The notes beneath the pieces were generated by a model. That model made no database searches and was not told the origin of the DNA. It was given only the letters and a program-made list of their open reading frames with translations. Both the position numbers and the translations under genes were made by a program. 64,000 bases of DNA, taken from sequence record OQ378934.1. One strand, 5' to 3'. Position 1 is the first letter of the stretch. Every line of letters begins with the position of its first letter. The DNA comes from Escherichia phage LH2. Positions 2,015 to 30,981 of the stretch are shown one piece after another.

Positions 2015-2212
2015 ATGAAGCGTAAACGCAGTGCTTTTACATTTATGGAATGGTTTTTCGATAATATTTTTCCGGCTTTATTCATTTTCATGCTGATTTT
2101 CGCCTTGGGGTCAGTTGTGGTTGGAATCTATTTGATGGCGGTTGTCGGAATGGATATTCACCAAAATGGTTTAAAATCTGTGGTTGAAACAATTTGGAAT
2201 GGTGTAAAATGA
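2015..2212 (+). CDS. small membrane protein (65 aa)
   Basis: ATG at 2015 with ggaaaa RBS; long hydrophobic stretch FPALFIFMLIFALGSVVVGIYLMAVVGM. Confidence 0.4.
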   Translation: MKRKRSAFTFMEWFFDNIFPALFIFMLIFALGSVVVGIYLMAVVGMDIHQNGLKSVVETIWNGVK

Positions 2213-2327
2213 TGAATTTGCTGAGTGGTTGGTTTTATATTCTCATGTTTTACATTGGTGCAAATTTCCCATATTGGATGGGATGGTCAACAACTGCATT
2301 TGGATTTTATACTCCCTGAGGTGAATT

Positions 2328-2543
2328 ATGAAAATTTTTAAAGATGTAAAGGTCGGTGAAATTTTTTGCTTAGATAATGGTGATCAGTTAATTCGTATTT
2401 CACCTCTTAAGAGCACTAGCGAGAAAATGACAGTTAACGCTACTTTAGCAAATAACAGTAATGAACGTTTCTGTATTGAAAATGATACTGAAACTTATAC
2501 TGTAGAAGAATTCTGGGAATTAAGTGTCGACTGCGACGATTAA
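2328..2543 (+). CDS. hypothetical protein (71 aa)
   Basis: ORF with gaggtg RBS in the ndd-proximal small-gene array. Confidence 0.45.
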   Translation: MKIFKDVKVGEIFCLDNGDQLIRISPLKSTSEKMTVNATLANNSNERFCIENDTETYTVEEFWELSVDCDD

Positions 2544-2602
2544 TTTATCGGCCGTATGTATTCATGCGGCCTTGGAGTAGAAAATAATTAGAGGAAATTA
2601 AC

Positions 2603-3058
2603 ATGAAATATATGACTGTTACTGATTTGAATAATGCAGGTGCAACTGTTATTGGTACAATCAAGGGCGGTGAATGGGTTTTTGGAACTCCGCATAAAGA
2701 CATTTTGTCTAACCCTGGATTTTACTTTTTAGTGAGTAAATTTGGTGGTCCATTTGATAGTCCGTGTGTATCTGCACGATTTTATGTAGGTAATCAGCGT
2801 TCTAAGCAAGGATTCAGTGCAGTTCTAAGTCATATTCGTCAACGTCGATCTCAGCTTGCGCGTACTATTGCAAATAACAATGTTCCATACACGGTATTTT
2901 ATCTACCTGCTTCTAAGATGAAACCTCTGACGACGGGATTTGGAAAGGGTCAGTTAGCTTTAGCATTTACTCGTAATCATCATTCTGAGTATCAAACACT
3001 TGAAGAAATGAACCGTATGTTGGCTGATAATTTTAAATTTGTTTTGCAGGCATATTAA
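2603..3058 (+). CDS. ndd: nucleoid disruption protein Ndd
   Basis: 151-aa ORF (T4 Ndd is 151 aa) directly upstream of stp/ac/52; gagg RBS; stop overlaps the stp start (TAATG). Confidence 0.75.
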
Positions 3059-3138
3059 TGAGCAATTTCCATAACGAACACGTGATGCAGTTCTATCGTA
3101 ACAATCTTAAAACTAAAGGCGTCTTCGGACGCCAGTGA
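3058..3138 (+). CDS. stp: Stp peptide (26 aa), activator of host PrrC anticodon nuclease
   Basis: Unlisted small ORF translating to [26 protein letters not shown], which I recognise as T4 Stp; syntenic with ac and gene 52. Confidence 0.8.
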
Positions 3139-3145
3139 GGAAAAT

Positions 3146-3295
3146 ATGAATATCGCAAAATTATTAGGAGTTATTTCATTTATTTGTTGGATAGTAGCAT
3201 GTGTTTTAACTATCTGTATTGATGTCAGCAGCGTGTTTTCGCAAGCTTTAGCTCAAGGGTATGTGTGCATGTTTAACATTTGCGTTGTTATCTAA
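3146..3295 (+). CDS. ac: acridine-resistance membrane peptide Ac-like (49 aa)
   Basis: Unlisted small ORF MNIAKLLGVISFICWIVACVLTICIDVSSVFSQALAQGYVCMFNICVVI, hydrophobic, positioned between stp and 52 as ac is in T4. Confidence 0.6.
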   Translation: MNIAKLLGVISFICWIVACVLTICIDVSSVFSQALAQGYVCMFNICVVI

Positions 3296-3435
3296 TGATT
3301 AAGAAAATCTTGGGCTACTCAGTAGCCCTTGCTGCTTTACTGGTAGCACTATATTATGGAGTAATGTTCGGATTAATTCAAGTCGTGCTTTTCATTTCTG
3401 ATGTTATTATGGCACTACATTCACTAGTATGGTAA
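3295..3435 (+). CDS. small hydrophobic membrane peptide (46 aa)
   Basis: Unlisted ORF MIKKILGYSVALAALLVALYYGVMFGLIQVVLFISDVIMALHSLVW, start overlapping the ac stop (TAATG). Confidence 0.4.
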   Translation: MIKKILGYSVALAALLVALYYGVMFGLIQVVLFISDVIMALHSLVW

Positions 3436-3439
3436 ATTT

Positions 3440-4768
3440 ATGCAACTGAATAATCGCGATTTAAAAAGTATCATTGATAATGAAGCATTGGCTTATGCTA
3501 TGTACACGGTTGAAAATCGTGCTATTCCAAATATGATTGATGGATTTAAGCCAGTTCAACGATTTGTTATCGCTCGAGCTCTTGATTTGGCACGAGGAAA
3601 TAAAGATAAGTTTCACAAACTCGCTTCTATTGCAGGTGGTGTAGCTGACCTTGGATATCATCATGGTGAAAACTCTGCGCAAGACGCGGGGGCTTTGATG
3701 GCTAATACTTGGAATAATAACTTTCCTTTGTTAGATGGTCAAGGAAACTTTGGTTCTCGTACCGTTCAAAAAGCAGCAGCAAGTCGTTATATTTTTGCTC
3801 GTGTAAGTAAAAATTTCTATAGTGTATATAAAGATACTGAATATGCTCCGGTACATCAAGATAAAGAACACATTCCGCCTGCTTTCTATTTGCCTATTAT
3901 TCCTACTGTTCTTCTTAATGGTGTTTCCGGTATTGCAACTGGTTATGCAACTTATATTCTTCCTCATAGTGTTTCTTCTGTCAAGAAAGCTGTACTACAA
4001 GCTCTTCAAGGAAAGAAAGTAACTAAACCGAAGGTAGAATTCCCAGAATTTCGTGGTGAAGTCGTTGAGATTGACGGGCAATATGAAATTCGTGGAACAT
4101 ATAAGTTTACTTCACGAACTCAAATGAATATCACTGAAATTCCGTATAAGTATGATCGTGAAACTTATGTGAGTAAAATCTTAGACCCGCTTGAAGATAA
4201 GGGCTTCATTACATGGGATGATGCTTGTGGTGAGCATGGTTTTGGCTTTAAAGTTAAATTCCGTAAAGAATATTCTTTGAGTGATAACGAAGAAGAACGC
4301 CATGCAAAAATCATGAAAGACTTCGGGTTGATTGAGCGTCGTTCCCAAAATATTACCGTTATTAATGAGAAAGGCAAGCTGCAAGTTTACGATAACGTAG
4401 TTGATTTAATCAAAGACTTCGTTGAAGTTCGTAAAACTTATGTCCAAAAACGAATTGATAACAAAATTAAAGAAACTGAATCAGCATTTCGTTTAGCCTT
4501 TGCCAAGGCGCATTTCATTAAGAAAGTAATTTCAGGTGAAATTGTTGTGCAGGGTAAAACTCGTAAAGAACTGACCGAAGAACTTTCTAAAATTGAGATG
4601 TATTCTTCTTATGTTGATAAACTAGTCGGAATGAATATTTTTCATATGACTTCTGATGAAGCAAAGAAACTTGCTGAAGAAGCTAAAGCTAAAAAAGAAG
4701 AAAACGAATATTGGAAAACTACTGATGTAGTTACAGAATACACCAAAGATTTAGAGGAAATCAAATGA
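3440..4768 (+). CDS. 52: DNA topoisomerase II medium subunit gp52
   Basis: 442-aa ORF (T4 gp52 is 442 aa) with the GyrA/ParC-like N-terminal segment (…AIPNMIDGFKPVQRFVIARAL…). Confidence 0.95.
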   Translation: MQLNNRDLKSIIDNEALAYAMYTVENRAIPNMIDGFKPVQRFVIARALDLARGNKDKFHKLASIAGGVADLGYHHGENSAQDAGALMANTWNNNFPLLDGQGNFGSRTVQKAAASRYIFARVSKNFYSVYKDTEYAPVHQDKEHIPPAFYLPIIPTVLLNGVSGIATGYATYILPHSVSSVKKAVLQALQGKKVTKPKVEFPEFRGEVVEIDGQYEIRGTYKFTSRTQMNITEIPYKYDRETYVSKILDPLEDKGFITWDDACGEHGFGFKVKFRKEYSLSDNEEERHAKIMKDFGLIERRSQNITVINEKGKLQVYDNVVDLIKDFVEVRKTYVQKRIDNKIKETESAFRLAFAKAHFIKKVISGEIVVQGKTRKELTEELSKIEMYSSYVDKLVGMNIFHMTSDEAKKLAEEAKAKKEENEYWKTTDVVTEYTKDLEEIK

Positions 4769-6475: not shown

Positions 6476-6771
6476 TGAATATTAAAAAGTTTCAAATTGA
6501 TGGAATTATGAATCAAATCCAGGCACTGGAATATGCCAATAAAATGATGTCAACTAATTGGGGAATTTATACCAATGAACCGGGATTTAAATTCTGTGAT
6601 ATGGAATTCACTAAAAAGCTCGTAGGAAAAGATTATGTATGTCCATTTAGTTCTCCAGTAAATGGAATGCTAAAACCTGCTTTGCGTGATCTTTATATTG
6701 CGATGAACGAAGAAATGATAAAAGAATTAAAACGTCAACTGAAGGTGATTCAATTTGGCCAGGGAAATTAA
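6475..6771 (+). CDS. hypothetical protein (98 aa)
   Basis: ORF in motA-arn interval. Confidence 0.5.
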   Translation: MNIKKFQIDGIMNQIQALEYANKMMSTNWGIYTNEPGFKFCDMEFTKKLVGKDYVCPFSSPVNGMLKPALRDLYIAMNEEMIKELKRQLKVIQFGQGN

Positions 6772-6973
6772 TTCAAAATCTGATTATTTTAATTCTCTCA
6801 ATGATAAAGATAAAAATCTAATACGGCATTTTATCGTTGAGATGGGATATACTGATACACGTGATTTAAGAGAACATATATTTGAATGTGGTGTAGCTAA
6901 AAAGTTTTCATTCACATGCAAATGTTTAAGAGAGGTAATTCAGCACTATGAACAATTTAGTCGCAAAACATAA
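6755..6973 (+). CDS. hypothetical protein (72 aa)
   Basis: ORF in motA-arn interval; overlaps the previous ORF by 17 nt. Confidence 0.4.
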   Translation: MAREINSKSDYFNSLNDKDKNLIRHFIVEMGYTDTRDLREHIFECGVAKKFSFTCKCLREVIQHYEQFSRKT

Positions 6974-7056
6974 TTTTAATAAAGCTTCTGTTCATAAAGA
7001 TAAGAAGAAAGCGTTTAAAGAATCTAATCGCAAACAGAAACATAAGGGGAAGGTCT

Positions 7057-7335
7057 ATGATTATTGATTCTCAATCTGTGGTTCAATATACAATCAAAAT
7101 TGACATTCTAGAAAAGCTATATAAGTTTCTACCAAATTTATACCACTCAATTGTCGATGAATTAGTTGAAGAACTACATCTTGAGAATAATGATTTCTTG
7201 GTTGGAACTTATAAAGATAACTCAAAGGCGGGATATTTTTACGTAATTCCAGCTCCAGGAAAAAGTATTGATGATGTATTAAAAACTATAATGATTTATG
7301 TCCATGATTACGAAATTGAAGATTATTTCGAATGA
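7057..7335 (+). CDS. arn: anti-restriction nuclease Arn
   Basis: 92-aa ORF (T4 Arn is 92 aa) at the syntenic position between motA and asiA. Confidence 0.75.
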   Translation: MIIDSQSVVQYTIKIDILEKLYKFLPNLYHSIVDELVEELHLENNDFLVGTYKDNSKAGYFYVIPAPGKSIDDVLKTIMIYVHDYEIEDYFE

Positions 7336-23393: not shown

Positions 23394-24186
<793 letters not shown>

Positions 24187-24187
<1 letters not shown>

Positions 24188-24738
24188 TGAAACAATACCA
24201 ATTTTTAATTAAAGATATCCTGGAAAACGGTTATGAAACCGATGACCGAACAGGCACAGGAACAATTGCTTTGTTCGGTACTAAATTACGCTGGGATTTA
24301 ACTAAAGGTTTTCCTGCAGTAACGACTAAGAAGCTTGCCTGGAAAGCTTGCATTGCTGAGCTCCTTTGGTTTTTATCAGGAAGCACAAATGTTAATGATT
24401 TACGATTAATTCAACACGATTCATTAATTCAAGGCAAAACAGTCTGGGATGAAAATTACGAAAATCAAGCAAAAGATTTAGGATATCATAGCGGTGAACT
24501 TGGTCCAATTTATGGAAAACAGTGGCGTGATTTTGGCGGTGTAGACCAAATTGTAGAAGTTGTTGATCGTATTAAAAAACTGCCAAATGATAGACGTCAA
24601 ATTGTTTCAGCATGGAATCCGGCAGAACTCAAGCAGATGGCATTGCCACCTTGTCATATGTTCTATCAGTTTAATGTGCGTAATGGCTATTTGGATTTGC
24701 AGTGGTATCAACGATCAGTAGATGTTTTCTTGGGTTAA
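24187..24738 (+). CDS. td: thymidylate synthase, exon 1
   Basis: MKQYQFLIKDILENGYETDDRTGTGTIALFG… through …QRSVDVFLG, ending at the canonical td intron 5' splice site (exon ends ...TTGGGT); the listed ORF begins 12 nt upstream at a TTG. Confidence 0.95.
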
Positions 24739-25751
24739 TTTAGGCCTGAGTATAAGGTGACTTATACTTGTAATCTATCTAAACGGGGAACCTCTCTAGT
24801 AGACAATCCCGTGCTAAATTGTAGGACTACCCTTTAATAAATACTTCTATATTTAAAGAGGTATTTATGAAAAGTGGAATTTATCAGATTAAAAATACTT
24901 TAAACAATAAAGTATATGTAGGAAGTGCTAAAGATTTTGAAAAGAGATGGAAGAGGCATTTTAAAGACTTAGAAAAAGGATGCCATTCTTCTATAAAACT
25001 TCAAAGGTCTTTTAACAAACACGGTAATGTGTTTGAATGCTCTATTTTGGAAGAAATTCCATATGAGAAAGATTTGATTATTGAACGAGAAAATTTTTGG
25101 ATTAAAGAGCTTAATTCTAAAATTAATGGATACAATATTGCTGATGCAACGTTTGGTGATACATATTCTGTACATCCATTAAAAGAAGAAATTATTAAGA
25201 AACGCTCTGAAACTGTTAAAGTTAAGATGCTTAAGCTTGGCTCTGATGGTCGGAAAGCTCTTTACGGTAAACCCGGAAGCAAAAATGGGCGTTGGAATCC
25301 AGAAACCCATAAGTTTTGTGAATGTGGGGTTCGTATACAAACTTCTGCTTATACTTGTAGTAAATGCAGAAATCGTTCAGGTGAAAATAATTCATTCTTT
25401 AATCATAAGCATTCAGACAAAACTAAATCTAAAATATCAGAAAAAATGAAAGGTAAAAAGCCTAATAATATTAAAAAGATTTCATGTGATGGGATTATTT
25501 TTGAATGTGCAGCTGATGCAGCTAGATATTTTGAAATTTCATCCGGATTAGTTACTTACCGTGTAAAATCTGATAAGTGGAATTGGTTCTACATAAATGC
25601 CTAACGACTATCCCTTTAGGGAGTAGGGTCAAGTGACTCGAAACGATAGACAACTTGCTTTAGCAAGTTGGAGATATAGTCTGCTCTGCATGGTGACATG
25701 CAGCTGGATATAATTCCGGGATAAGATTAACGACCTTATCTGAACATAATG
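24739..25751 (+). mobile_element. td group I self-splicing intron (1013 nt) carrying the I-TevI gene
   Basis: Intron 5' sequence taatttaggcctgagtataaggtgacttatacttgtaatctatctaaacgggg and 3' end ...ctgaacataatG match the T4 td intron; the exon 1 and exon 2 reading frames join across it. Confidence 0.9.
24867..25604 (+). CDS. intron-encoded GIY-YIG homing endonuclease I-TevI
   Basis: 245-aa [38 protein letters not shown]… with GIY-YIG catalytic domain, zinc finger and C-terminal HTH; length and sequence match I-TevI. Confidence 0.95.
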   Translation: MKSGIYQIKNTLNNKVYVGSAKDFEKRWKRHFKDLEKGCHSSIKLQRSFNKHGNVFECSILEEIPYEKDLIIERENFWIKELNSKINGYNIADATFGDTYSVHPLKEEIIKKRSETVKVKMLKLGSDGRKALYGKPGSKNGRWNPETHKFCECGVRIQTSAYTCSKCRNRSGENNSFFNHKHSDKTKSKISEKMKGKKPNNIKKISCDGIIFECAADAARYFEISSGLVTYRVKSDKWNWFYINA

Positions 25752-26063
25752 CTTCCATTCAACATTGCCTCGTACGCTGCCTTGACGCATATTGTAGCTA
25801 AGATGTGTAATCTTATTCCAGGAGATTTGATATTTTCTGGTGGTAATACTCATATCTATATGAATCACGTAGAACAATGTAAAGAAATTTTACGTCGTGA
25901 ACCTATGGATTTATGTGAATTACAATTAAAATTTCCAGATGAATTTGATGAATGGGGCACAGAATCTCAGGTATTTTGGTTGAGTCAATTCGCAAAGCCA
26001 CATAATTTTGTTCTTAACAACTATGTATCTCATCCGCCAATTAAAGGAAAGATGGCGGTGTAA
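25752..26063 (+). CDS. td: thymidylate synthase, exon 2
   Basis: Continues LPFNIASYAALTHIVAKMCNLIPGDLIFSGGNTHIYMNHVEQ… to …VSHPPIKGKMAV; in frame with exon 1 after intron removal (287 aa total). Confidence 0.9.
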   Translation, partial: LPFNIASYAALTHIVAKMCNLIPGDLIFSGGNTHIYMNHVEQCKEILRREPMDLCELQLKFPDEFDEWGTESQVFWLSQFAKPHNFVLNNYVSHPPIKGKMAV

Positions 26064-26074
26064 TTTTAATTTAA

Positions 26075-26332
26075 TTGAGAGGATATATGATTTTACGATT
26101 TAAGGATACTTCTGGTGTCGTTCTTTTTACACTTCCTAATCCAAGTGAACTGGAAGTTCCAGGGCCAGAACAGCCTATTATCATTTATGGCAAAAAATAT
26201 TATACTCATAAAATGACTCGTGAGTATTTTGATAATAAAATTTCTACAGTTAAAACTTCTTCTGATTGTTATTATGATATTACTGTTTTAACGGAAAAAC
26301 AATATGACGAATGCAGAACTTTAGCAGTATAA
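26075..26332 (+). CDS. hypothetical protein (85 aa)
   Basis: ORF with gagagga RBS between td and nrdA; its last 12 nt overlap the convergent GIY-YIG gene. Confidence 0.5.
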
Positions 26333-27052
26333 ATATGATTCCCAGCAATCTAGAGCGCATCTTTTAGATATAAGTTTTCTGCTTATTCCGGTTTGACGCA
26401 CAGCTTCTGCTATTGTTGGATATTCTACCCCATCTATACTTACTCTTAGATGGGGTTTCTTTTTACCTCTTTGCGAGTCAGAAATTCGTTTTCTAACTTC
26501 ATTGGTATGTGTCTGTCCATAATATGGGTTATTGATGCCTTTCATATTAAGTGCAGCGTTTCTTTCTTGGAACTTTTTGCTTATTTCTATAGCACGATCT
26601 AACCCATAGTGTTCTTCTATAGTTTTACCTTTGATATCTCTAGGTCTACCATGTTTTTGCTTAAGTTCTTCTGGTGATAATTTTGAATTATTATTTTTAA
26701 TTGCATTTGAAATTTTATTAAGGATTTCTTTCTTTCTTGGGTGATGAGATAAGGTATCCCCAAACGATGCGTCTGCTATATTATACCCATTTTCCTTTGA
26801 GTCATATTCATGCATCCAATAATTTTCACGTTCAATAATGATAGATTTTTCGTATGGAAGTTCTTCTATGATTTTACATACGAAAGCATCTTTCCCATGC
26901 TTATTATAAGAACGCTGCAGCTTTATTGAATGATGATTTCCATTATCTAAATCTTTAAAGTGTCGTTTCCATCGTTCTTCAAAATTAATTGCACTTCCTA
27001 TATAGTGCTTATTGGTTTTAGTGTTTATAATAGCATATATTCCAGATTTCAT
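26321..27052 (-). CDS. free-standing GIY-YIG homing endonuclease (I-TevI-like, seg-type)
   Basis: 243-aa [38 protein letters not shown]… whose N-terminal ~95 aa closely parallel I-TevI; C-terminus has NUMOD3-like ([20 protein letters not shown]) and NUMOD1-like HTH ([24 protein letters not shown]) motifs. Confidence 0.85.
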
Positions 27053-27074
27053 TATATTCTCCTATATAAAATTA

Positions 27075-27082
27075 TATTTATA
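27075..27082 (-). promoter_or_regulatory. late promoter TATAAATA upstream of the free-standing GIY-YIG gene
   Basis: Plus-strand tatttata is TATAAATA on the - strand, about 23 nt upstream of the endonuclease start codon. Confidence 0.55.
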
Positions 27083-27107
27083 TGGGGTAACTTACTATAG
27101 AGGACTT

Positions 27108-29372
27108 ATGCAATTAATTAATGTTATCAAAAGTAGTGGTGTTTCTCAGAGCTTTGATCCACAAAAAATTATTAAAGTTTTATCTTGGGCAGCTGAAGGA
27201 ACATCTGTAGATCCTTATGAATTATATGAAAATATTAAATCATATCTCCGTGATGGAATGACCACTGATGACATTCAAACCATTGTAATTAAGGCTGCTG
27301 CGAATTCTATTTCAGTTGAAGAGCCTGATTATCAATACGTAGCTGCACGCTGTTTAATGTTTGCTCTTCGTAAGCATGTTTACGGGCAATATGAACCACG
27401 TTCATTTATTGACCATATTTCTTACTGCGTAAATGAAGGTAAATACGACCCTGAATTGTTGTCAAAATATTCTGCAGAAGAAATTACATTTTTAGAATCA
27501 AAAATTAAGCACGAGCGGGATATGGAATTTACTTATTCCGGGGCGATGCAATTAAAAGAAAAATATCTCGTTAAAGATAAAACCACTGGTCAAATTTATG
27601 AAACTCCACAGTTTGCATTTATGACTATTGGAATGGCATTGCATCAAGATGAACCTGTTGATAGACTAAAACACGTTATTCGTTTTTATGAAGCAGTATC
27701 TACTCGACAGATTTCATTACCAACTCCTATTATGGCTGGTTGCCGTACTCCAACTCGGCAGTTTAGTTCATGCGTTGTTATCGAGGCGGGTGATTCGCTG
27801 AAGTCTATCAACAAGGCTTCCGCTTCAATTGTTGAATATATCTCCAAACGCGCTGGAATTGGTATTAACGTTGGTATGATTCGTGCTGAAGGTTCTAAGA
27901 TTGGCACAGGTGAAGTACGTCATACTGGTGTTATTCCTTTTTGGAAACATTTTCAGACTGCTGTTAAATCATGCTCACAGGGTGGAATTCGTGGCGGCGC
28001 TGCTACTGCTTATTATCCTATTTGGCATTTGGAAGTTGAAAATCTTCTCGTTTTGAAAAATAACAAAGGTGTAGAAGAAAACCGTATCCGTCATATGGAT
28101 TATGGTGTTCAGCTGAATGACCTAATGATGGAACGATTCGGAAAGAACGATTACATTACTTTGTTTAGTCCGCATGAAATGGGTGGCGAGCTTTATTATT
28201 CTTATTTTAAAGACCAAGACCGTTTCCGCGAATTATACGAAGCAGCAGAAAAAGACCCTAATATTCGCAAAAAGCGTATTAAAGCCCGTGAACTATTTGA
28301 ATTACTCATGACTGAACGATCAGGAACAGCAAGGATTTATGTACAGTTCATTGATAATACGAATAACTATACTCCATTTATTCGTGAAAAGGCACCTATT
28401 CGTCAGAGTAACTTGTGTTGTGAAATTGCTATTCCAACAAATGATGTGAATAGTCCTGATGCTGAAATCGGATTGTGTACCCTTAGCGCATTTGTGTTGG
28501 ATAACTTCGATTGGCAAGACCAAGATAAAATTAATGAATTGGCAGAAGTCCAAGTTCGCGCTCTTGATAATCTTTTGGATTACCAAGGATATCCAGTTCC
28601 TGAAGCAGAAAAAGCTAAAAAGCGTCGAAATCTTGGTGTAGGTGTTACTAACTATGCAGCTTGGCTGGCAAGCAACTTTGCTTCTTATGAAGATGCTAAC
28701 GATTTAACACATGAACTATTTGAGAGACTACAGTATGGACTCATTAAAGCATCCATTAAGCTCGCCAAAGAAAAAGGACCTTGCGAATATTATTCAGACA
28801 CTCGTTGGTCTCGAGGCGAATTACCTATCGACTGGTACAATAAAAAGATTGACCAAATCGCAGCTCCAAAATACGTTTGTGACTGGTCGGCGCTGCGGGA
28901 AGACCTTAAGCTCTTTGGCATCCGTAATAGCACATTATCAGCACTTATGCCATGTGAGTCATCTTCCCAAGTTTCTAACAGTACAAACGGTATCGAGCCT
29001 CCACGTGGACCAGTCTCTGTTAAAGAGTCAAAAGAGGGTTCCTTTAATCAAGTCGTGCCCAATATTGAACATAACATAGACCTCTATGATTATACGTGGA
29101 AATTAGCTAAGAAAGGTAATAAACCTTATCTTACGCAGGTAGCTATTATGCTGAAATGGGTATGTCAATCAGCTTCAGCGAATACATATTATGACCCGCA
29201 GATTTTTCCAAAAGGAAAGGTTCCAATGTCTGTAATGATTGATGACATGCTATACGGATGGTATTATGGCATTAAAAACTTCTATTATCATAATACCCGC
29301 GATGGTTCTGGTACTGATGATTATGAAATAGAAACTCCAAAAGCTGAAGATTGTTCATCCTGTAAATTATGA
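27108..29372 (+). CDS. nrdA: aerobic ribonucleotide reductase large subunit NrdA
   Basis: 754-aa product from the MQLINVIKSSGVSQSFDPQKI start (T4 NrdA is 754 aa); ATP-cone N-terminus and class I RNR motifs. Confidence 0.95.
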   Translation: MQLINVIKSSGVSQSFDPQKIIKVLSWAAEGTSVDPYELYENIKSYLRDGMTTDDIQTIVIKAAANSISVEEPDYQYVAARCLMFALRKHVYGQYEPRSFIDHISYCVNEGKYDPELLSKYSAEEITFLESKIKHERDMEFTYSGAMQLKEKYLVKDKTTGQIYETPQFAFMTIGMALHQDEPVDRLKHVIRFYEAVSTRQISLPTPIMAGCRTPTRQFSSCVVIEAGDSLKSINKASASIVEYISKRAGIGINVGMIRAEGSKIGTGEVRHTGVIPFWKHFQTAVKSCSQGGIRGGAATAYYPIWHLEVENLLVLKNNKGVEENRIRHMDYGVQLNDLMMERFGKNDYITLFSPHEMGGELYYSYFKDQDRFRELYEAAEKDPNIRKKRIKARELFELLMTERSGTARIYVQFIDNTNNYTPFIREKAPIRQSNLCCEIAIPTNDVNSPDAEIGLCTLSAFVLDNFDWQDQDKINELAEVQVRALDNLLDYQGYPVPEAEKAKKRRNLGVGVTNYAAWLASNFASYEDANDLTHELFERLQYGLIKASIKLAKEKGPCEYYSDTRWSRGELPIDWYNKKIDQIAAPKYVCDWSALREDLKLFGIRNSTLSALMPCESSSQVSNSTNGIEPPRGPVSVKESKEGSFNQVVPNIEHNIDLYDYTWKLAKKGNKPYLTQVAIMLKWVCQSASANTYYDPQIFPKGKVPMSVMIDDMLYGWYYGIKNFYYHNTRDGSGTDDYEIETPKAEDCSSCKL

Positions 29373-29388
29373 TATAATTACCACAAGG

Positions 29389-30981
29389 ATGTGGTTAACT
29401 AAGAATAACGCTATGTTTGATAATATATACAAAAACGGAAAGTTTCTTCCATTTGGAGAAGAAAAACTTAAATCTAGACTAACAGAAGAAGATAAAGCTC
29501 TTCTAACTGATGGAATAGATTTTAAGCTCAATGTGTTCCAAATTATGGAAGGCATTGACATTAACGATCTAAAATGTGCAGTTTGTGGAAATTTCATTTC
29601 TCTGAAAACAGCAAAGAAACGTGTATTTCCAGCAACATGTAGTAAATCCTGCGCAGGGATATTTTTCGCGGATAAGAGAATTCAAAGCCGTGATACAAAT
29701 TTTGGCGGAAAAGAAAAATATAAAAAATATTTGTCTGAACTTCAACACAAAAATTCTTTAGAAAAATATGGAACAACTCATCAAAAAATTTCAAGAAATA
29801 AAAATAGAAAAACTTTAATTGAACGATATGGGGTAACGCATAATTCACAATTAGAAAGTGTGAAAGAAGCGAGAAAAGTTATAGAAAACGGTAAATCAGT
29901 TGATATTCTGCATTCTAGAAAATCTCGCGAAAAATCTAAGAAGACTAAATTAAATTGGACTAAAGAATATAAGGCATCGTTATATTCATCTATAGGAAAA
30001 TCTATTAAAAATAACGGTCATATTAATCATGATATACTAGATAAAATCAATTACAAAATTTCTATAGAAGAACTACAACAATTAGCAAATTGTTCTCGGA
30101 TGACGGCTTATAGAGCTCTTTCATCCAAAGGACTAATTGACGTTCATTATACTCAAAGTTCTATAGAGCAGTTCATTTTAGATCTAGGATTTGATTGCGT
30201 AGAAACTAGAAAAATTATTCCTCCGTATGAATTAGATATTTACATTCCTGAGAAAAAATTGGCTATAGAATACGATGGAATTTATTGGCATTCTAGCGGG
30301 TCAAAGGAAACAGATAAAATTAAAGAAACTTATCATTTGATGAAGACAGAGATGTGTGAAGCACAAGGAATTCAATTACTTCACATCTTCGAAAATGAAT
30401 GGATTGATGATACAAAAAGAGAGATCTGGAAATCCATTATAAAGCATAAATTAGGATTATCAGAAAGAATACCAGCCCGAAAATGCAAAGCACGGTTTGT
30501 TAATAAGGATGAGGCAAAAGAATTTATTAATAAGAATCATCTTCAAGGATTTTGCTCAGGAGCTCATACGTATAAAGGACTTTATTACAATAATGAGTTA
30601 GTTCAAATTATTTCTATCGGTAAATCTAGATATAGCTCAGGTGATGAACTTTTAAGGATGTGTTCAAAATTAGGGGTTTGTGTTGTAGGAGGAGCCTCAA
30701 AATTATTAAAAGGAATTAATTGTCTATCTTATGGCAATCGAAGATGGTGCAGTACATTATCAAATGTTTATGACTCTGTCATGGAATTTAGTCATATCTC
30801 TGAGCCATGTTATTGGTACGTCGATAAAGGAGAGGTATTTCACCGCTCAAGCTATATGAAACATAAGCTTAAAAACAAGCTTAAAAATTATGATGATACA
30901 ATAACTGAAGTAGAAAATTGTTATGCAAATGGTCTTAGAAGAATCTGGGACTGTGGAAATTTAGTTTACAGGACAAAATAA
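29389..30981 (+). CDS. putative free-standing homing endonuclease with Vsr-like PD-(D/E)xK nuclease motif (530 aa)
   Basis: Large AT-rich ORF filling the nrdA-nrdB gap; N-terminal Cys cluster (CAVCGNF…CSKSC), internal KYGTTH/RYGVTH repeats, and a central motif ELDIYIPEKKLAIEYDGIYWHS resembling the Vsr/DUF559 FxDGxxWH endonuclease signature. Confidence 0.55.
   Translation: MWLTKNNAMFDNIYKNGKFLPFGEEKLKSRLTEEDKALLTDGIDFKLNVFQIMEGIDINDLKCAVCGNFISLKTAKKRVFPATCSKSCAGIFFADKRIQSRDTNFGGKEKYKKYLSELQHKNSLEKYGTTHQKISRNKNRKTLIERYGVTHNSQLESVKEARKVIENGKSVDILHSRKSREKSKKTKLNWTKEYKASLYSSIGKSIKNNGHINHDILDKINYKISIEELQQLANCSRMTAYRALSSKGLIDVHYTQSSIEQFILDLGFDCVETRKIIPPYELDIYIPEKKLAIEYDGIYWHSSGSKETDKIKETYHLMKTEMCEAQGIQLLHIFENEWIDDTKREIWKSIIKHKLGLSERIPARKCKARFVNKDEAKEFINKNHLQGFCSGAHTYKGLYYNNELVQIISIGKSRYSSGDELLRMCSKLGVCVVGGASKLLKGINCLSYGNRRWCSTLSNVYDSVMEFSHISEPCYWYVDKGEVFHRSSYMKHKLKNKLKNYDDTITEVENCYANGLRRIWDCGNLVYRTK

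Follow-up and report, generated by a model that had tools for sequence, protein, structure and literature searches.

I-TevI, a homing endonuclease of the GIY-YIG family that is encoded in the td group I intron of phage T4 and represented by the structures 1MK0, 1LN0 and 1I3J, is expressed late and uses a zinc finger as its distance determinant. The free-standing Seg proteins of T4 (SegA-SegG) likewise have an N-terminal GIY-YIG domain and are sporadic among T-even relatives. We describe here a gene that resembles both, located in a 64,000-nucleotide (nt) stretch of Escherichia phage LH2 (sequence record OQ378934.1; this whole stretch is called the window below). The gene lies between td and nrdA on the opposite strand, and had been noticed in a reading of the window made without database searches (the sequence-only reading). 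Sequence comparison indicates that this td/nrdA gene is intact and encodes a free-standing (seg-like) GIY-YIG homing endonuclease, which is probably functional and homing. The protein is a paralogue of I-TevI that lacks the zinc finger, and the 788-bp cassette carrying its gene stands in place of nrdA.1.

How does the locus compare with the systems already described? The likeness to I-TevI is extensive: both proteins have about 245 amino acids (aa), their GIY-YIG domains share 68% identity and one set of catalytic residues, the linker begins in both with ADASFGDT, and a NUMOD3 helix is followed in the same order by a C-terminal helix-turn-helix. The window's own I-TevI gene also has a TATAAATA-like element (AATAAATA) at a similar upstream position. 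The td/nrdA gene differs in lying outside any intron, on the strand opposite td, and in having a helical module where I-TevI has its zinc finger. In its DNA-binding region it shares only about 30% identity with I-TevI, so that a different target is expected, and no trace is seen of recent exchange between it and the resident I-TevI. I-BmoI, the GIY-YIG endonuclease of a Bacillus mojavensis thyA intron, is another I-TevI relative tied to a thymidylate synthase gene and also has no zinc finger. It is, however, intron-encoded, targets thymidylate synthase coding sequence and has a Gram-positive host, and it is not among the sequence or fold matches of the td/nrdA endonuclease to solved structures.

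Like the T4 seg genes, the td/nrdA gene is free-standing, encodes an N-terminal GIY-YIG domain, is wedged among conserved genes with its ends overlapping neighbouring open reading frames (ORFs), and occurs sporadically. It differs from them in being far closer to I-TevI than a generic seg gene is, in being antisense to its neighbours with its own predicted late promoter, and in replacing a resident gene rather than occupying an intergenic gap. Seg-type genes spread by cleavage of the cassette-less allele followed by gene conversion (PMC2988022), and the td/nrdA endonuclease would be expected to do likewise. The td/nrdA position is absent from the T4 seg and mob insertion sites tabulated in a review of T4 mobile elements (PMC2988022). 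A further parallel is with Hef/SegH-type replacements and with mobE in the nrdA/nrdB gap. These too are homing endonuclease genes of the nucleotide-metabolism cluster that substitute for the content of the slot in other phages, but they belong to other nuclease families (HNH or other) and occupy a different slot; moreover, mobE is read through from nrdA and has no late promoter of its own (PMC2988022). GenBank already labels copies of the td/nrdA gene 'homing endonuclease', 'GIY-YIG nuclease family protein' or 'endonuclease I-TevI', and no paper that names or characterises it was found in the literature searched. It is an uncharacterised member of a well-known kind, and as T-even genomes vary in just such ways it is unsurprising to a specialist.

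The ORF is exactly as the sequence-only reading gave it, with an ATG start, and the close parallel to I-TevI that was claimed for its N-terminal domain holds on pairwise comparison. BLASTP of the full-length protein against the window's own I-TevI (24867-25604, + strand) gives 45% identity over 242 aa (expectation value [E] 3e-70), with most of the similarity within the first ~100 residues, and aa 1-98 are 68% identical to the crystal structure of the I-TevI catalytic domain, 1MK0 (E 1e-39). An AlphaFold2 model of the endonuclease (mean predicted local distance difference test score 87.6) superposes on 1MK0 with a root-mean-square deviation of 0.6 A and a template-modelling score of 0.98. The catalytic residues listed in Table 1 are all intact, and are invariant or nearly so among 49 homologues. 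In a Pfam search of the ORF, the GIY-YIG match is over the cut-off (E 7e-15), as is that to NUMOD3 (E 2e-6; 28 bits against a cut-off of 20.4), and the match to I-TevI_DNA-bd falls under it (E 2e-4; 21.4 bits against 27). Of the two C-terminal motifs proposed earlier, NUMOD3 is therefore present, and NUMOD1 is not detected in the ORF at E <= 0.1. The C-terminal stretch with the sub-threshold I-TevI_DNA-bd match does agree with the structure of the I-TevI DNA-binding domain, 1I3J, both by sequence (E 3e-7) and by fold (Foldseek probability 1.0, 30% identity).

The region between these two parts has no counterpart of the zinc finger. The Pfam search gave no match to I-TevI_ZnF (PF22635) in the ORF, and in the alignment aa 136-172 contain no Cys, against four in the I-TevI clade; the AlphaFold2 model has helices here at residues 107-123, 127-134 and 145-167. 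Having no zinc finger, the protein is I-TevI-like and not an I-TevI orthologue. Nor is the ORF within a group I intron: it sits between nrdA.2 and nrdA on the opposite strand. A search of 23900-27500 for structured RNAs gave no Rfam match at the gathering threshold; the td intron, interrupted by its ORF, was itself also not called.

The gene has been kept under constraint. Against Jiaodavirus copies the window gene has a ratio of nonsynonymous to synonymous divergence (dN/dS) of 0.10-0.12, with low values in each of its halves. Seven other copies were aligned by codon, and every one is full-length, at 243 aa. The window allele is a mosaic in its synonymous divergence (dS), the first 100 codons differing from the Jiaodavirus copies by a dS of 0.04-0.09 and the remainder by about 0.5, which suggests that alleles of the endonuclease gene have recombined with one another.

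The boundaries of the cassette can be read from comparison with T4 and with the cassette-less relative IME339. Homology to both ends at 26311/26312 and returns at 27100, so the cassette replaces the last 15 codons of nrdA.2 and the whole of nrdA.1. The sequence-only reading knew of no gene at this position in T4. In fact the td-nrdA interval of T4 holds two genes in the orientation of td, nrdA.2 and nrdA.1, and nrdA.1 stands where the endonuclease gene is. The product of nrdA.1 is a DUF4326 protein, and nrdA.1 is the gene displaced in all three lineages with the cassette (Tequatrovirus, Jiaodavirus and Acinetobacter phages). On the left, the insertion has rewritten the C-terminus of nrdA.2, which now ends in YDECRTLAV in place of YDELLPRGPSMPGSE. 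The 85-aa ORF noted earlier as overlapping the endonuclease by 12 nt is this nrdA.2 homologue, and the overlap is correct and convergent, between the 3' ends of the two genes. On the right, the junction falls just 5' of the nrdA ribosome-binding site, the identical site being used in Jiaodavirus, and the endonuclease and nrdA stand back-to-back with 55 bp separating their start codons. The ends of the cassette are thus located in intergenic DNA or at gene ends. The distance of 0.7 kb from the td intron that had been quoted is true if measured from the I-TevI stop codon; the cassette itself starts about 560 bp past the intron end. In the Acinetobacter phages AbTZA1 and Meroveus the right boundary is the nrdA start codon itself, and the cassettes supply nrdA with a new ribosome-binding site and with a GTG start instead of ATG.

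Is the cassette a regular part of these genomes? A tblastn search at a threshold of at least 80% identity found copies in 26 phage records, 8 from Tequatrovirus (about 522 matching records) and 18 from Klebsiella Jiaodavirus (about 170 records), so that the gene is far from universally conserved at this locus in T4-like phages. The remaining ~150 Jiaodavirus records have two small ORFs in place of the cassette, one of them nrdA.1-like. The invasion suggested by the sequence-only reading is borne out and looks recent. Between the window and Klebsiella phage KP179 (Jiaodavirus) the cassettes are 93% identical, whereas the flanking td and nrdA genes are about 69% identical; the 93% homology spans 26320-27102 only. 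Identity to Nispero likewise drops from 97% to 62% exactly at 27100. Both junctions are identical in all eight cassette-bearing Tequatroviruses, which indicates a single insertion event in this group.

The surroundings of the cassette vary even so. Among the Tequatrovirus carriers, the window, RPN226, TB004 and sutha have td with its intron and I-TevI, N2 and CJY920 have the intron with the I-TevI ORF deleted, and ECO07P5 and Ozark have an intronless td; the carriers differ as well in the inserts within nrdA and between nrdA and nrdB. The deletion in N2 and CJY920 is of 775 bp and takes out the I-TevI ORF almost exactly (equivalent to 24819-25594 of the window). When the eight carriers were compared with T4 and IME339, no cassette-linked single-nucleotide polymorphisms (SNPs) or co-conversion tracts were found in td exon 2, nrdA.2 or the first 600 bp of nrdA. 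These varied surroundings, with no SNP linked to the cassette, mean that it moves between genetic backgrounds. From the sequences, then, this is horizontal movement independent of the flanking genes, and it is cross-genus, between Jiaodavirus and Tequatrovirus.

More distant homologues occupy the same place. In the Acinetobacter phages AbTZA1 (51% identity) and Meroveus (47%) the endonuclease gene again lies antisense in the gap that runs from the 3' end of td to the 5' end of nrdA, and three metagenomic T4-like contigs (75, 56 and 54% identity) have it antisense in the td/nrdA slot, one of them together with a td intron that encodes a zinc-finger I-TevI. Among Acinetobacter phages the gene is again sporadic and again replaces nrdA.1 (DUF4326), and there are recent presence/absence polymorphisms of the cassette in 99.7% identical backgrounds. 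Acinetobacter phage BRC001/Porter has two I-TevI-like endonuclease genes in tandem in the td/nrdA gap (2071-3885 of locus L018), a Meroveus-type copy that is intact and an AbTZA1-type copy broken into ORFs of 255 and 468 bp; the sequence suggests that invasion and decay have been caught in progress at a single locus. Taken as a whole, the comparisons describe an endonuclease lineage with a fixed address, the td/nrdA gap, where nrdA.1 is displaced.

The predicted late promoter of the gene is at the position given for it in the sequence-only reading. An exact TATAAATA is found at -30 to -36 of the ATG in all eight homologous loci examined, although the surrounding sequence differs and in some is unrelated. 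The motif by itself is not significant in the AT-rich window (11 copies against 9.25 expected); it is its conservation across loci, not its frequency, that argues for a real T4-type late promoter, whose function stays putative. A second exact TATAAATA occurs on the + strand at 26328-26335, in the zone where nrdA.2 and the endonuclease gene overlap. If active, it would drive late transcription antisense through the endonuclease gene towards nrdA; it coincides with the codons of a conserved C-terminal YLYC and may be there by chance. A candidate MotA-type middle promoter lies inside the 5' coding region of the endonuclease gene, pointing at nrdA from 77 nt upstream of the nrdA ATG, and is kept in KP179, Nispero and locus L019, though within coding sequence. 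The pattern of MotA box plus -10 element is enriched in the window (27 against 14.7 expected). Judged by its sequence, this candidate may replace the TATAAT lost with nrdA.1.

Table 1. Features of the td/nrdA endonuclease locus in window coordinates
Feature	Position	Strand	Remarks
Mobile cassette, 788 bp (endonuclease gene plus promoter region)	26312..27099		Replaces about 300 bp of cassette-less phages
Endonuclease ORF	26321..27052	-	243 aa, ATG start; stop codon 26321-26323
GIY-YIG catalytic domain, aa 1-98	26759..27052	-	Y6, Y17, R27, H31, H40, E76, N91 intact
Linker and helical middle module, aa 99-170	26543..26758	-	Replaces I-TevI zinc finger; no Cys ligands
DNA-binding region, aa 171-243	26324..26542	-	NUMOD3 minor-groove helix and I-TevI-type helix-turn-helix
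Shine-Dalgarno AGGAG of endonuclease	27059..27063	-	6 nt before ATG; sequence read directly
Predicted T4-type late promoter TATAAATA	27075..27082	-	22 nt from last base to ATG; putative function
Candidate MotA-type middle promoter TGCTTATTGGTTTTAGTGTTTATAAT (TGCTTAT-N13-TATAAT)	27006..27031	+	Pattern match; putative
Left neighbour, nrdA.2 homologue, 85-aa ORF	26075..26332	+	DUF5496, E 6e-53
Right junction, retained nrdA ribosome-binding site and start codon (GAGGACTTATG)	27100..27110	+	nrdA starts at 27108

From homology with I-TevI and the T4 seg genes we infer the following steps. The gene would be silent early, being antisense to the early/middle td-nrdA transcription unit, and would be transcribed late from its own TATAAATA promoter. 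The protein would bind DNA through its C-terminal NUMOD3 helix and helix-turn-helix while the tethered GIY-YIG domain cuts nearby, as in I-TevI. In a mixed infection the cassette-less allele of a co-infecting phage would be cut, and recombination-dependent repair off the cassette-bearing genome would copy the cassette in place of nrdA.1. The phage's own genome would be immune because the target would lie in, or across the edges of, the ~300 bp deleted by the cassette. The scheme predicts nuclease activity, late expression and homing, and the position of the target is the most tentative of its predictions.

Two pairs of genomes bear on the target. Acinetobacter phage AbTZA1, which has the cassette, and Bhz15, which does not, are identical over 160 bp before the left junction and 1826 bp after the right one, and the window is identical to the cassette-less IME339 over 25788-26311 and over the first 58 bp of nrdA. 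As the flanks of carriers and non-carriers are identical in these pairs, a site that discriminates between them would have to be in the replaced segment or across a junction. Within that segment are the last ~120 nt of nrdA.1, which at 0.70-0.77 identity make up the longest stretch conserved in all three lineages (Tequatrovirus, Jiaodavirus and Acinetobacter phages), the 5' region of nrdA being about 0.6 identical across them. All three cassette lineages delete this block. The conserved 3' end of nrdA.1, where it abuts the start of nrdA, is consequently the best target candidate, with roughly an even chance of being the right one.

Several points weigh against this explanation. The conservation peak at the 3' end of nrdA.1 is modest and may be plain coding constraint. 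The endonuclease promoter region was compared, in three pairings, with the candidate target of cassette-less phages in search of an I-TevI-style operator; the best matches, 16-17 of 24, did not rise above those of shuffled sequences. Seg enzymes that have been characterised often cleave at a distance of a few hundred bp from their own gene and some tolerate sites in their own genome, so the argument that places the target in the deleted segment is not watertight. The frequency of the cassette in Tequatrovirus, about 1.5%, is low for efficient drive. No co-conversion tract is seen in the AbTZA1/Bhz15 pair either, and the absence of such a tract or of a linked haplotype fits ordinary recombination just as well as homing. 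Finally, no biochemical or genetic evidence of cleavage or homing was found in the literature for the protein or its close homologues.

Might the enzyme instead be directed at td? Its target could be in td, at or near the I-TevI insertion site, and it could serve as a partner in 'collaborative' or trans homing by which the td intron, ORF-less forms included, is mobilised as well. It belongs to the closest paralogue family of I-TevI and is always beside td; six of the eight Tequatrovirus carriers, the window included, have the td intron, which two of them (N2 and CJY920) keep with the I-TevI ORF deleted; and only about 0.56 kb separates the insertion site from the cassette, a distance within the cutting range of seg enzymes. 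Against this, intact intronless td genes stand beside the cassette in ECO07P5, Ozark, all the Jiaodavirus carriers, AbTZA1, Meroveus and loci L019 and L021. Around the insertion site only 2-3 nt differ between the intronless td of the carrier ECO07P5 and that of the cassette-less IME339, and the whole td of AbTZA1 has only two mismatches to that of Bhz15 (at 2588 and 3087), with one more just past its end (3315). The low identity of the DNA-binding region to I-TevI (~30%) and the absence of the zinc-finger distance determinant also speak against td as the target, and we regard this explanation as very improbable. The I-TevI homing site itself was considered as a target and is unlikely, the intronless td alleles of carriers and non-carriers being nearly alike. 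Proximity apart, nothing links the gene to the td homing site, next to which the sequence-only reading had placed the suggested invasion, and the cassette is found beside intronless td genes as well.

A different possibility is that the gene is a passenger, inactive or without a target in Tequatrovirus, which moves by ordinary recombination or hitch-hikes in the co-conversion tracts of I-TevI 0.56 kb away. Exon co-conversion in td homing is known to reach hundreds of bp, and most carriers have the td intron; the low count in Tequatrovirus (8 of ~522), the single insertion event and the lack of a flanking haplotype linked to the cassette would all fit. Yet dN/dS is about 0.1, and the ORF, catalytic residues, Shine-Dalgarno sequence and late promoter are intact in all compared copies, across genera, whereas decaying copies look different, as the fragmented one in BRC001 does. 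Two Tequatrovirus carriers and all those of Jiaodavirus and the Acinetobacter phages are without the td intron, so hitch-hiking cannot account for the wider distribution, and a passenger seems unlikely to us. The same strong purifying selection, and the conservation of the locus across Straboviridae subfamilies, could also mean that the protein has been co-opted for the benefit of the phage, either as a late weapon against co-infecting relatives, which would be degraded or excluded with no gene conversion involved, or as a DNA-binding regulator of the divergent nrdA/endonuclease promoter region. The second role would suit the back-to-back arrangement with nrdA (55 bp between starts) and the removal of the TATAAT-containing end of nrdA.1, and would have an analogy in autorepression by I-TevI, which is stated to act also as a transcriptional repressor (PMC12774661). 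But the gene is sporadic and not fixed within each genus, with recent presence/absence polymorphisms in 99.7% identical backgrounds, a distribution that argues for a selfish element. Its full catalytic set is retained, and no operator-like repeat of the target sequence was found. Co-option is in our estimate very unlikely, and a homing endonuclease directed at cassette-less alleles is the reading that we prefer.

The sequence-only reading proposed domain shuffling between the two resident genes, I-TevI and the td/nrdA gene, for which there is no support. Recent conversion or shuffling with the resident I-TevI was rejected, as the two are 69.6% identical in nucleotide sequence over the first 339 nt and the longest exact run is 11 nt; exchange of modules appears only among evolutionarily distant homologues. 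What lies between nuclease domain and NUMOD3 helix takes three forms among homologues: helical (the clade of the window endonuclease), extra NUMOD3 repeats, and the I-TevI zinc finger. The nuclease domains are 63-73% identical across the three module types. A rough neighbour-joining tree of this domain, unbootstrapped and carrying no support values, suggests that the modules have been swapped over long timescales and does not single out the ancestral form. The free-standing forms examined adjoin td and I-TevI is inside td, across Straboviridae subfamilies. It is conceivable, if quite unlikely, that the zinc-finger-less td/nrdA lineage is the td-adjacent free-standing stock that gave I-TevI to the td intron ('collaborative homing'), or that the two enzymes still cooperate, the free-standing one mobilising in trans ORF-less td introns such as those of N2 and CJY920.

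Other variable elements lie nearby. Between nrdA and nrdB, in the slot of T4 mobE, the window has a 530-aa ORF (29389-30981, + strand) for a Hef-like homing endonuclease, with a match to phrog_3339 (E 3e-151), weak matches to the DUF559/MTES_1575 nuclease fold, and a 'Hef-like' annotation in phage N2. Three homing endonuclease genes (I-TevI, the td/nrdA gene and the Hef-like ORF) thus fall within about 6 kb of the window. In RPN226 (6583-7293 of locus L001) and in locus L020 (1729-2439), an inserted gene for an HNH/NUMOD-type endonuclease splits nrdA into two ORFs; an nrdA split by an endonuclease gene has been described for Aeromonas phage Aeh1 (PMC2988022). Between frd and td there is a 68-aa ORF (23981-24187, + strand; phrog_9550, of unknown function). 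In T4, frd and td overlap with nothing between them, and other relatives have different small ORFs there. At the 3' end of td (25900-26040), the last ~140 bp of the window belong to a strongly divergent haplotype that is also found in the cassette-less IME339. Dozens of substitutions set this haplotype apart from T4 and from every other carrier examined; the pattern is a sharp mosaic due to recombination and is unrelated to the cassette.

The td/nrdA gene leaves the current understanding of homing endonucleases unchanged, and what interest it has is moderate and confined to three points: transfer between genera, a locus that stays the same across subfamilies, and the alternative linker module. 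It provides a close natural variant of I-TevI with another linker module, which could help studies of distance determination or the design of Tev-based genome-editing fusions. It is also a clean natural example of a cassette that has moved between Klebsiella Jiaodavirus and Escherichia Tequatrovirus, with junctions resolved to the base pair. The hot spots known in the T4 nucleotide-metabolism cluster gain from it a further slot, defined and apparently dedicated to homing endonucleases, that takes the place of nrdA.1 between td and nrdA.

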